Numbered from the stretch's first letter, positions 50,135-52,569 are shown. The stretch is 64,000 nucleotides of DNA from a virus (IMGVR_UViG_3300021387_000118:141168-205167); one strand, 5' to 3'. Notes: generated from the letters alone by a model not told the origin. Numbers and translations are program-made.

Positions 50135-50631
50135 GTTTTAAAATATTGTAATTTTATAAGTTTCTAAAACTCTTGGTTTACTTGGGTCTGGAATACGCAG
50201 TTTTGGAATATTATAATTTTATAAGGTTCTAAAACTTTTTAGAATACTGAAAATATGCCCATATTGTTTTGGAATATTGTAATTTTATAAGGTTTTAAAA
50301 CGATGTACCCGGCAGATGAAGTCCAGATGTTGTTTTGGAATATTGTAATTTTATAAGGTTCTAAAATGATGTACCCAGCAGATGAAGCAGAAATGTTGTT
50401 TTGGAATATTGTAATTCTATAAGGTTCTAAAACATGGCGACACTGATCCGTAATAACATGAACGTTTTGGAATATTGTAATTTTATAGGGTTCTAAAACA
50501 TGGATGCCTGGTATTCGATTACAGATGAGGTTTTGGAATATTGGAATTTTATAGAGTTCTAAAACGACGAAAGTGAAGTCCATGAGTCCCATGATGTTTT
50601 GGAATATTGTAATTTTATAGAGTTCTAAAAC
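50135..50631 (+). CRISPR. CRISPR array: 8 x 36-nt repeats (GTTTTGGAATATTGTAATTTTATAAGGTTCTAAAAC), 7 spacers of 29-30 nt
   Basis: Repeats at 50135, 50200, 50266, 50332, 50398, 50464, 50530 and 50596. The first repeat is degenerate. The repeat termini GTTTTGGAA...TTCTAAAAC are mutually complementary. The 36/30 geometry is type II-like. Confidence 0.85.
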
Positions 50632-50900
50632 CTCAATTCCAAAACAATTTTAGAACATTATAAAATTATGTGGCAAACCAAAAATAGATTAAGAGAAGTT
50701 CTTATTTGAACAATATCTACGTTATTATGAGATAATATATTATTGTGTAACTCTAGCAATAAACATATCGCAAAAGTTTAAACATCCAAAGCCATACAAT
50801 ATTAATGGAAGTGACTGAGCAGTAATGAATTGAATTTATTACAAGACTCGTAATAACATTATCGAAGAGTATGACCGCTATTTAGCGAGATTTATTTATT
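50632..50900 (+). ncRNA. tracrRNA-like / omegaRNA-like scaffold with anti-repeat
   Basis: AATTTTAGAACATTATAAAATTA at 50646-50668 is complementary to the 3' 22 nt of the repeat (2 mismatches). It lies 14 nt after the last repeat and is followed by about 230 nt of non-coding sequence up to iscB. Confidence 0.4.
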
Positions 50901-50922
50901 AAATATTAAAAAGGAAATAAAT

Positions 50923-52569
50923 ATGGAATACAAAGAATATGTATATGTAATTGATAAAAATGATATGCCGTGCAATCCGATCACTCATGGAAAAGCCAGA
51001 TATTTATTAAACAATAATATGGCTGTTATAAAAAACCATGATCCATTTGTTATCAAACGAACTGATGATTATTTAAGGGGTTTTGAGGTTGATAATCATT
51101 ATGTCTTAAAAATTGACATGGGATATAAGCATATTGGATTTTCAATAACTTCTGAATATGATGAGGTAATTTGTGGGCAAGTTGAATTGTTGGAAGGAAT
51201 GTCTAAAAGATTAGCGGAAAGGGCAAGATATAGAAGAGGGCGCAGAAATAGACTCAGGCATAGGCGTAATAAGAACATAGATATTAAAACAATTAAGAAT
51301 CCAAATTACAAAAATGGCAATGAAGACGGCTGGTTCGCACCGTCAATAAGACATAAAATGGATACTCATACCAGACTTGTTGATAAATTGAGGGCGTGGA
51401 TTCCTATTGACCGTATTGAATTAGAAGTTTCAAACTTTGATATTCAGCAGATGAAAGCAGATCTGAAAGATTATGAGATGCATGGTACTGATTATCAAAA
51501 TGGTGAAATGAAAGGATATGATAATGTAAAATTATATATTAAAGAGCGTGACAAATACACATGCCAGTGTTGTAAGAAAAAAACAACATCTGGGGAAGTA
51601 CACCATATTATTCCAAGAAGTTGGGGTGGAAGTAATCGCCCAGGAAATCTTATATACCTATGTGTAGAATGTCACTCCAAATGTCATAGGAATAATAATG
51701 ATAATGACTTATTTAGGGATATCCAAGAAAAGAGAGTCGATGGTGATTTTAAAGAAGCGACTTTCATGAATGCTGTTCGCTGGGCAATTTACGATGCTTT
51801 AGGAGAGCATTTCGATGTAGATGCATATTTTGGATACGAAACAAATAGAAATCGCAATGCAGCTAATTTGCCAAAATTTCATCACAACGATGCAGTGTGT
51901 ATTAATTCATTTAATAATACTTCTCTTTCAAAATCATTATATATCATTAAACAATCAAGATGTAATAATAGGTCGATGAAAGATTTTTTTGATGCAAAAT
52001 ATATTGATAGTAGAACTGGCAAAGTAGCAAGCGGGAACGATTTAAAAAAAATACACAAAGAGGGTAGGCTTAAGAGATCTACTAGAAAAGAAGATATAAA
52101 TAATTTAAGGGTTTTTAGACAAGAAAAAGTCAAGTCTGGAAATGAACGCAATTCTTGCCATAGTTATTGTTTAAAGCCTGGCGATTTAATTAGGATCATT
52201 AAAGATAATAAGATAATCGAAGTAAATACTATGCAAAAAAGGAATAATGGTTTTATAATTGTATGCGATAATCCAGATGAGGATGCAACTAGCGAACAGT
52301 TAACATTCTCTATAAAATCAGACGAATACGAAAAATTAAAAACTACAGGGAAGTGTAATCGCATAGAGATTGTTAGAACAAGGCGTGGTTTAATTTGGTA
52401 CAGGTATGATCGTGTTGAATTTGAAGAAAAACATGTGGATCAGTATCATATTAAAGAAGTAGATGCAGCAGAAAAAGCAGCTAGATCAAAAGAAATCAAA
52501 GCAAGAAAAGAACAGAAAAAGAAAGAAAAAGATGCATTGAGAGAATCCAATGAAACCGCTCTTTCGTAA
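50923..52569 (+). CDS. iscB: IscB-like / compact Cas9-like RNA-guided nuclease (PLMP + RuvC + HNH)
   Basis: PLMP-like N-terminus VIDKNDMPCNPITHGKARYLL. RuvC-I VLKIDMGYKHIGFSI. Arg-rich bridge helix RARYRRGRRNRLRHRRNK. RuvC-II IELEVSNFD. HNH CQCC...VHHIIPRSWGGSNRPGNLIYLCVECHSKCH. RuvC-III FHHNDAVCI. RBS aaaaaggaaataaatATG. Confidence 0.7.
   Translation: MEYKEYVYVIDKNDMPCNPITHGKARYLLNNNMAVIKNHDPFVIKRTDDYLRGFEVDNHYVLKIDMGYKHIGFSITSEYDEVICGQVELLEGMSKRLAERARYRRGRRNRLRHRRNKNIDIKTIKNPNYKNGNEDGWFAPSIRHKMDTHTRLVDKLRAWIPIDRIELEVSNFDIQQMKADLKDYEMHGTDYQNGEMKGYDNVKLYIKERDKYTCQCCKKKTTSGEVHHIIPRSWGGSNRPGNLIYLCVECHSKCHRNNNDNDLFRDIQEKRVDGDFKEATFMNAVRWAIYDALGEHFDVDAYFGYETNRNRNAANLPKFHHNDAVCINSFNNTSLSKSLYIIKQSRCNNRSMKDFFDAKYIDSRTGKVASGNDLKKIHKEGRLKRSTRKEDINNLRVFRQEKVKSGNERNSCHSYCLKPGDLIRIIKDNKIIEVNTMQKRNNGFIIVCDNPDEDATSEQLTFSIKSDEYEKLKTTGKCNRIEIVRTRRGLIWYRYDRVEFEEKHVDQYHIKEVDAAEKAARSKEIKARKEQKKKEKDALRESNETALS

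Follow-up and report, generated by a model that had tools for sequence, protein, structure and literature searches.

A probable CRISPR-IscB effector module, with its own repeat array and omega-RNA-type scaffold, in a lineage of large phages

A 64,000-nt stretch of viral DNA (IMGVR_UViG_3300021387_000118:141168-205167, hereafter the window) carries between positions 50135 and 52569 a CRISPR array, an anti-repeat, a structured non-coding RNA and an open reading frame (ORF) for an IscB nuclease, all of them on the plus strand. Both in the window and in every member of a clade of related loci, the array was found upstream of, and co-oriented with, the anti-repeat-bearing RNA and the IscB ORF. The locus is probably a domesticated, phage-encoded CRISPR-IscB effector module, and IscB very probably uses guides derived from the array.

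Eight direct repeats of 36 nt with the consensus GTTTTGGAATATTGTAATTTTATAAGGTTCTAAAAC were located by repeat search at 50135-50631 (starts at 50135, 50200, 50266, 50332, 50398, 50464, 50530 and 50596), the repeat-to-repeat spacing being 65 nt once and then 66 nt six times, and the seven spacers 29-30 nt long. The search reproduced the coordinates and spacer lengths proposed in an earlier annotation made from the sequence alone (the first-pass annotation). Repeat 1 is the most degenerate copy, and the derived repeat mutations nest toward the 3' end, as position 25 is A in R1-R5 and G in R6-R8, and position 26 is G in R1-R6 and A in R7-R8. The adjacent spacers 3 (50302-50331) and 4 (50368-50397) show six differences between them and read in frame as MYPADEVQM and MYPADEAEM, respectively, as if they came from two alleles of one phage gene, so they may be allelic variants of a single coding target. 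Spacer 7 (GACGAAAGTGAAGTCCATGAGTCCCATGAT, 50566-50595) is, by sequence and RNA fold, the one closest to the part resembling a trans-activating CRISPR RNA (tracrRNA; the tracr part), and would serve as the guide of a natural single guide formed in cis. A motif at the spacer ends (...ATGWW in the window) was considered and dropped, as it was not general across 90 non-redundant spacers.

The only long ORF downstream of the array (50923-52569, iscB) encodes a protein of 548 aa that was identified by profile matches, alignment and predicted structure. It scored 277.5 bits on the NCBIfam model 'RNA-guided endonuclease IscB' (guided_IscB; cut-off 175), matched Pfam RRXRR over residues 7-194 (E 1.6e-37) and also matched Pfam HNH, and its motif DMPCNP aligned with the PLMP region of solved IscBs. 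The domain order is PLMP/RRXRR, RuvC-I (D65), Arg-rich bridge helix (~96-116), RuvC-II (E168), HNH (H227/H228) and RuvC-III (H320, D323), followed by beta domains of the WED/target-adjacent motif (TAM)-interacting type (~334-496) and by an extra Lys/Glu-rich helix (507-547). In an alignment of 27 relatives, D65, E168, H227, H228, H320 and D323 were invariant, and in a HMMER alignment the catalytic residues of the window protein, among them D65, E168, H320 and D323 of RuvC, fell on D61, E193, H247, H340 and D343 of OgeuIscB, which are the catalytic residues of that enzyme (PMC9640706). An AlphaFold2 model (predicted local distance difference test 75.7; predicted template modelling score 0.60) matched IscB structures along its whole length in Foldseek (8csz, E 1.7e-24), whereas Cas9 structures matched it weakly, the best of them (type II-D, Cas9d) with a template modelling (TM) score of ~0.30 versus 0.45 for IscB, and there is no REC lobe. 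Profile search, PLMP alignment and residue alignment therefore agree with the motifs previously read from the sequence, and the RuvC residues are intact. The ORF is a bona fide IscB with a complete catalytic set, predicted to be active.

Protein searches revealed a sharply bounded clade around this IscB (P0002-P0040; 46-70% identity, 513-579 aa, at least 498 bits), below which the next matches were ordinary IscBs of about 450 aa with at most 290 bits. Clade loci were found on IMG/VR viral contigs (28 loci, mostly on contigs of 80-220 kb) and in metagenomes (33 more), and the clade comprises at least 65 loci with 17 repeat types. All 67 loci with the scaffold motif AAATAGAnTnAG...CTACGTTAT carry 1-8 repeats of 36 nt directly upstream; the layout is repeats, a short linker (nTCAAA), anti-repeat and scaffold, with the ATG located 195-242 nt after the scaffold motif. 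Because this whole layout recurs in at least 65 related loci, a chance arrangement is excluded. A nucleotide search with window positions 49000-54000 against 50,697 phage records returned no match. A second, independent phage-borne CRISPR-IscB locus, whose IscB is 36% identical, was seen on an IMG/VR contig of 248 kb (L030:3170-5140), with about nine repeats (GTTGTAAATGGGTTTCAAAATAAGGTATTAAACAAC), 30-nt spacers, an anti-repeat and a match of 57 bits to the Rfam family HEARO; its array has the canonical polarity, with the degenerate repeat next to the tracr part, and so runs opposite to the arrays of the window clade.

The anti-repeat (TTTTAGAACATTATAAAATTA, 50648-50668), which is the upper-stem strand of the tracr part, was detected by inverted-repeat search, duplex energies and folding. 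Positions 50647/50648-50668 show 90% complementarity to the last repeat across 21 nt, with 17 nt between the arms, and the anti-repeat is 95% complementary over 22 nt to repeat 4. When the RNA of 50566-50900 was folded, the 3' half of the last repeat paired with the anti-repeat in cis in both the minimum free energy and the centroid structures (z = -3.0 versus shuffles), in line with the proposal of the first-pass annotation that the last spacer, repeat, loop and anti-repeat fold as a natural single guide. The same annotation had placed the complementarity in the 3' 22 nt of the repeat; this pairing is present, but repeat nucleotides 2-7 and 8-14 are predicted to pair too.

Nucleotides 2-7 of the last repeat (TTTTGG, 50597-50602) are the CRISPR RNA (crRNA) strand of a lower stem of 6 bp next to the guide, the tracr strand of which (CCAAAA, 50678-50683) corresponds to the 6 nt just 5' of ATAGA. 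The duplex was predicted in all 17 repeat types and is backed by covariation, with 88.9% of the cells of this helix (helix 1) paired and with position 6 switching between A-U (13) and G-C (10). Nucleotides 8-14 (AATATTG, 50603-50609), the internal-loop strand, are complementary to the loop of scaffold hairpin 2 (50797-50803), with which they would make a kissing contact or pseudoknot. The partners change together across the clade (AATATTG/CAATATT in the window, AAGAATG/CATTCTT in L001, AAGAGTG/CACTCTT in L026, AGGTATG/CATGCCT in L022 and AATAATG/CATTGTT in L044), four of the seven pairs changing on both sides, and own partners formed 5.83 of 7 pairs versus 4.84 of 7 for non-own ones (permutation p = 5e-5, an indication rather than a strict probability, since the sequences are related). 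Nucleotides 15-35 (50610-50630) are the crRNA strand of an upper stem of 21 bp supported by duplex prediction and fold. Linker indels spoil a column-wise covariation alignment of this stem, which was judged instead by a matrix of own versus non-own duplexes: over the 17 repeat types, the pairing of own repeat with own tracr part averaged -20.6 kcal/mol versus -11.8 kcal/mol for non-own pairs, and the own repeat was the best binder for 11 of the 17 tracr types. The pairing with the anti-repeat is thus conserved through co-variation. As the repeats co-vary with the anti-repeat, the lower stem and the scaffold loop, the crRNA is tied to the IscB scaffold.

After the anti-repeat, about 250 nt of structured non-coding RNA precede the ORF, and the scaffold proper was delimited at 50684-50900 by a HEARO match, covariation and coordinates. 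It contains a nexus-type stem (GATTA at 50687-50691 with TTATC at 50859-50863), a central stem (50721-50731 with 50847-50857) and, enclosed by the latter, hairpin 1 (50740-50762), whose CUCU loop can pair with GAAGAG at 50864, and hairpin 2 (50770-50820), with the loop CAATATT at 50797-50803; a terminal hairpin (50876-50887), a U-rich tail and the ribosome-binding site AAAGGA follow. In an alignment of 27 sequences, RNAalifold and pair counts supported the central stem, the two enclosed hairpins and the terminal hairpin, whereas invariance puts the nexus stem and the CUCU:AGAG pairing beyond a test by covariation. Paired cells amounted to 92.9%, compared to 33-48% when the partners were slid, and the covariation score was 0.478 versus at most 0.10, a value reached by 0 of 500 shuffles. 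The non-coding scaffold that had been described as leading into the ORF thus has a fold backed by covariation among homologs. The Rfam HEARO model (RF02033) matched 50685-50875 with 20.4 bits (E 0.1; gathering score 83) and over model positions 53-211 only, whereas ordinary IscB loci from the same searches scored 64-108 bits. By analogy with the OgeuIscB omega RNA (PMC9640706), the skipped positions 1-52 would include the 5' guide-adjacent hairpin, and in these loci the repeat:anti-repeat duplex occupies the place of the guide-adaptor hairpin of omega RNA. A weak HEARO match missing only this hairpin, together with the strong covariation, supports the scaffold as a probable omega-RNA derivative.

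The linker between array and anti-repeat holds a further complementary segment, seen in the sequence itself: ATTCCAAAAC (50636-50645) is a perfect complement of repeat nucleotides 1-10 and cannot coexist with the cis upper stem. Matching versions occur in relatives (ATTCTAAAAC in L036 and TTTCCAAAAC in L039), and this segment may act as a switch between cis and trans pairing.

The 67 arrays contained 193 spacers, 106 of them unique and 74 of the latter exactly 30 nt long. Near relatives with identical repeats carried different spacers, a diversity across related genomes that a non-CRISPR satellite would lack. Allele-like pairs of spacers were seen, besides spacers 3 and 4 of the window, between L006 and L007 and between L025 and L027, and odd short 'spacers' of 14-22 nt are present in the clade. 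When spacers were searched against phage genomes, the sole spacer common to the L013 group matched 30/30 in the gene for a 2740-aa tape-measure protein of another viral contig (flanks: 5' GCAGATTCC, 3' CGCATCTCAG), and spacer 1 of L009 matched 27/30 in a helix-turn-helix (HTH) gene of the related phage L012, with no match in about 10 kb of L009's own locus. The best match for a window spacer was that of spacer 3, which shares 21 nt (21/30) with a phage gene of no known function. In four additional scans with spacers, most matches were to the arrays, and the tape-measure protospacer came from one of these scans. No host match was obtained for the 106 spacers in about 1 million bases, bacterial contigs included, nor did the host spacers of L121 and of L133, a type II-A locus described below, match the phage loci. 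Of the two kinds of target proposed in the first-pass annotation, competing phages are thus backed by two protospacers in the clade, whereas host defence loci were left without support, and these sequence matches make it reasonably likely that rival phages are the targets of the module. The HTH gene carrying the L009 protospacer encodes a regulator of 68 aa and is found in L012 (2524-3478), together with a gene for a SIR2-like protein of 262 aa, just upstream of the array; the same pair is present in some relatives.

With regard to the source of the spacers, the PADLOC models for Cas1, Cas2 and Csn2 had no match among the 79 ORFs of the window, itself a part of a phage genome of ~142 kb, as had been expected from the first reading of the neighbourhood, and cas1/cas2 were absent from the gene tables of related loci. 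A 260-aa ORF at 29848-30630, just after the primase gene and 20 kb from the array, gave a weak match to Cas4 and to the Cas4 part of Cas4-Cas1 fusions (E ~1e-3 to 2e-4); its product is a PD-(D/E)XK nuclease, for which a role in spacer capture is conceivable. A search of 185,579 genomes with a degenerate repeat pattern found two arrays, in metagenome-assembled genomes of ruminant-gut Clostridia, and one of the two, L133, is a complete cas9-cas1-cas2-csn2 locus of type II-A. The phage repeats are identical to the L133-type repeat (GTTTGAGAGTAGTGTAATTTTATAGGGGTCTCAAAC) at 26-32 of 36 positions in the same orientation (29/36 for the window repeat) compared to 18-23 of 36 when reversed. An antisense relation of the phage crRNA to a canonical II-A array was considered but rejected, since phage and host repeats share their orientation and the reversal is confined to the leader-type junction. 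On the minus strand of L133 (181-300), a tracrRNA-like anti-repeat (GTTTTGTAGACCCCTACAAAATTACACTACGAGTTCAAAT...) lies upstream of cas9, with a predicted pairing to its own repeat of -40 kcal/mol.

Reverse-complementing the II-A leader end ATTTGAG/GTTTT gives the junction after the last phage repeat, AAAAC/nTCAAAT; the L133 leader ends ...AAATTTGGG. In the window this motif reads CTCAATT (50632-50638; family consensus nTCAAAT); it is conserved in the family and is the putative site of spacer integration. ATTTGAG/GTTT is the type II-A group-1 leader-repeat junction, for which the last 10 nt of the leader plus one repeat suffice for adaptation (PMC5382924). At the other end of the array, the 5'-most repeat had 3.6 mismatches to the consensus versus 1.0 for middle and last repeats (32 arrays), and the 5'-most spacer is among those in common in each of four pairs of related arrays. 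From the reversed leader-type junction and the degenerate repeat at the far end, we infer that spacers may be gained at the tracr-proximal end by a host II-A integrase, a proposal that we hold with slightly less than even confidence.

If the locus is a CRISPR-IscB module, the array, anti-repeat and omega-RNA-derived scaffold would be transcribed on the plus strand just upstream of iscB, and each 36-nt repeat would dock on the tracr part through the 6-bp lower stem, the 21-bp upper stem and the 7-nt loop-loop contact with hairpin 2. Contacts of the last repeat would form in cis and yield a natural single guide with the tracr-proximal spacer. For the repeats upstream of it, pairing would be in trans, followed by host RNase III cleavage of the kind known from type II systems. 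IscB, with RuvC and HNH intact, would then be guided by the spacers to cleave double-stranded DNA of competing phages beside a target-adjacent motif. As the phage lacks adaptation genes, the Cas1-Cas2(-Csn2/Cas9) machinery of a host type II-A system would insert spacers at the junction between last repeat and tracr part, and the newest spacer would thereby take the single-guide position.

Several points weigh against this reading. In two groups of loci (L005 and L021), the 7-nt loop contact is weak, with 3-5 of 7 pairs, and the HEARO score is far under the gathering score (20 vs 83 bits), with L001 and L117 giving no match at E <= 0.01. Only two protospacers were recovered for the whole clade, with 3' flanks (CGCATC vs GAAAAT) that show no obvious common motif. 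For the window itself, no exact target of the seven spacers was found when these were concatenated and compared with the same 50,697 phage records (INPHARED, E <= 10), and when IMG/VR was searched for exact or degenerate copies of spacers 3/4, 6 and 7, a partial match of 21 nt was the only one obtained. Regarding spacer gain, L133 does not necessarily belong to the host of the window phage. A nested-mutation test across arrays was not decisive (five blocks favoured the 3' end and three the 5' end), and L037 and L038 have their two 5' spacers and one internal spacer in common and diverge in between, a mosaic that points to recombination and not only to polar growth. The junction was read as a leader motif only after the fact, and its conservation could instead reflect an RNA or protein contact, given its place in an RNA loop. 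Moreover, with insertion from the tracr side, the usual II-A orientation rule would place the protospacer-adjacent motif of the host on the protospacer side opposite the motif of IscB, and a good target-adjacent motif would not be guaranteed.

Spacers could also be gained without any Cas1-Cas2, either by recombination between the arrays of co-infecting relatives or by guide capture of an IscB/omega type, CTCAA being then an RNA or protein contact. The L037/L038 mosaic, the short 14-22-nt 'spacers' and the position of the junction motif in the loop of the cis hairpin fit such a route, as does L038, where a 30-nt spacer-like insert replaces the nTCAAA linker (2334-2440) and runs straight into an anti-repeat that begins like a repeat (GTTTTGGAAT...), apparently after an aberrant integration or recombination event. 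However, the strict geometry of 36-nt repeats and spacers mostly of exactly 30 nt is that of type II-A integration, recombination alone cannot create 106 distinct spacers, the junction motif matches a functionally defined II-A leader element and the degenerate repeat is consistently found at the opposite end. We therefore regard this route as unlikely.

The likeness between phage and host repeats could also mean that the array is a mini-array for the Cas9 and tracrRNA of a type II-A host, in the way that virus-borne mini-arrays draw on host effectors, with IscB as an ordinary omega-RNA-guided neighbour. The arrays are short (1-8 repeats), their repeats have the canonical orientation, and pairing of the L036 repeat with the host tracrRNA is predicted at -22.4 kcal/mol versus -20.5 kcal/mol for its own pairing, both being about equally stable for some repeat types. 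Nevertheless, anti-repeat and IscB scaffold are physically joined, the former taking the place of the omega-RNA guide-adaptor hairpin, and the linkage between array and iscB is invariant across the clade. The co-variation of the repeats with phage anti-repeat, lower stem and scaffold loop would not persist if IscB ignored these crRNAs, which leaves this explanation with a low probability, although host Cas9 may use the array as well.

The least probable explanation is anti-CRISPR mimicry, in which host immunity would be disarmed rather than other phages attacked, either because host II-A crRNAs are sequestered by IscB and its tracr-like RNA or because host Cas9/tracrRNA is drawn off by the array as a decoy. 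An anti-CRISPR role of this kind has been proposed for a phage-encoded Cas9 homologue whose tracrRNA fits host repeats (PMC10910872). Phage and host repeats are similar, and some phage tracr types are predicted to pair with the L133 II-A repeat about as well as with their own, as in L036 (-20.8 vs -20.5 kcal/mol), L133 being not necessarily from the host. This explanation is nonetheless very improbable, given that the published phage case has an array score of 0, that is no array, whereas the clade arrays are always present and turning over, that the RuvC and HNH sites are both intact, without variation among 27 clade members, that spacers match other phages and that own repeat and own tracr part pair on average much better than non-own ones.

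Upstream of the array, a candidate sigma-70-like promoter (TTGACC-16-TACTAT, 49993-50020), weak with 9/12 consensus matches, sits about 115 nt away from the first repeat; in a scan of the region for promoters and terminators, sites were not above shuffled expectation. A 23-nt inverted repeat with 83% complementarity was also seen right after the upstream gene (50011-50064 / 50051-50124 region), and a sub-threshold match to the twister-P3 ribozyme between that gene and the array (20.7 bits vs 39.9, E 0.31) is probably due to chance.

The window is a phage replication module of a large phage, encoding a DnaB-type helicase, a primase, a DNA polymerase, two RNA ligases, a polynucleotide kinase, an NAD-dependent DNA ligase and a thymidylate synthase. 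An identical IscB protein was found on contigs of up to 142 kb, from samples that we take to be sheep rumen. In relatives of 63-70% identity, iscB adjoins the NAD-dependent DNA ligase gene, and no transposase (TnpA) was called at the window iscB or at related loci, where the neighbours are phage replication and repair genes. This stable place beside the ligase gene and the absence of a transposase indicate that iscB is a resident phage gene and not an insertion sequence. The nuclease would therefore work as an IscB, but not as part of an 'obligate mobile element' system. Right after iscB, an ORF of 65 aa (52598-52795) with two CxxC pairs encodes a zinc-ribbon-like protein, and gene calls on the identical contigs L114-L116 include it. 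Elsewhere in the window, the DNA polymerase ORF (33519-38054, 1511 aa) has an insert at ~570-932 that matches non-polymerase PHROG families and is probably an intein. Four tRNA genes (Gln, Met, Cys, Leu) are clustered at 20997-22926 and there are two integrase-family ORFs (5067-6038 and 11755-12747), from which the phage may be temperate.

In its widest form, which we put forward only tentatively and with more doubt than belief, the proposal is that this lineage of large gut/rumen phages is a living intermediate between OMEGA systems and type II CRISPR, with an IscB, a loop-docked crRNA, a 'backwards' array and a memory against rival phages outsourced to the host. An IscB with an array represents the presumed passage from transposon nucleases to Cas9, and the clade offers an abundant and diverse natural set (at least 65 loci and 17 repeat types) of IscB apparently working from a real CRISPR array, in which the transition from a fixed guide to a split crRNA/tracrRNA is open to study by comparison and experiment. 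For phage biology, it would add a case of RNA-guided warfare between phages with a self-supplied minimal effector, as well as a virus whose suspected use of host type II-A adaptation can be put to the test; if true, the phage outsources its immune memory to the host and turns it on rival phages. Nucleases of 513-579 aa with natural single-guide designs and covariation-mapped RNA contacts are also candidate compact editors.

Among known systems, type II-A CRISPR-Cas, as represented by L133, shares the 36-nt repeats with 26-32 of 36 positions identical, the 30-nt spacers, a full-length anti-repeat with an internal bulge and the ATTTGAG-type junction motif. In contrast, the effector here is an IscB of 548 aa without REC lobe rather than Cas9, cas1, cas2 and csn2 are lacking, the leader-type motif is at the transcription-distal, tracr-proximal end in reverse orientation, and the tracr part, joined to the array in cis, passes into an omega-type scaffold. 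Arrays without adaptation genes are also carried by viruses and used in conflicts between them, as in the CRISPR systems of huge phages and the mini-arrays of archaeal viruses. Such an array is likewise short, devoid of cas1/cas2, built of host-like repeats and provided with spacers against related viruses, whereas the phages described here bring their own minimal effector and tracr scaffold instead of relying on host interference proteins.

The comparison with OMEGA IscB (OgeuIscB; PDB 7XHT, 8CSZ) showed the same domain order, catalytic residues and fold, and that with omega RNA/HEARO a similar layout of the scaffold, which likewise lies immediately 5' of the ORF and has a nexus stem, two hairpins enclosed by a central stem, a pseudoknot from loop to 3' tail and a terminal hairpin. 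The differences are the lack of a transposase and of a mobile-element context, a HEARO score of 20 bits compared to 64-108 for ordinary IscB loci, a protein longer by ~50-100 aa with a C-terminal helix, and an array plus a split repeat:anti-repeat duplex in place of the single fixed guide and guide-adaptor hairpin. The omega RNA of OgeuIscB has a plain 14-bp guide-adaptor hairpin, and no repeat-loop contact was described for it (PMC9640706).

The closest system is CRISPR-associated IscB, an already described category (PMC12660989, which cites Altae-Tran 2021). In DelIscB, an engineered nuclease from an aquatic metagenome locus, an array, a repeat:anti-repeat hairpin, a scaffold and the ORF follow one another and there is no REC lobe (PMC12660989). 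The window module has the same IscB-sized nuclease without REC lobe, placed after a non-coding RNA with spacers, repeats and anti-repeat, and the same duplex hairpin before an omega-type scaffold, so that the mechanism is presumably the same by analogy. Compared to DelIscB by description rather than by sequence, it is a conserved gene of large gut/rumen phages, and it differs further from CRISPR-associated IscB in its repeats of the type II-A kind with a reversed leader-type junction and in the additional covarying contact of the crRNA repeat with a scaffold loop. Viral IscB/HEARO genes are known and have been described as not CRISPR-associated, and no report of a phage-borne CRISPR-IscB lineage was found in the literature searched, which did not cover the primary 2021 paper on CRISPR-associated IscB. 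The core mechanism was thus to be expected, and what is new is the residence in phages, the II-A-type array with its reversed junction and the extra contact between crRNA and scaffold.

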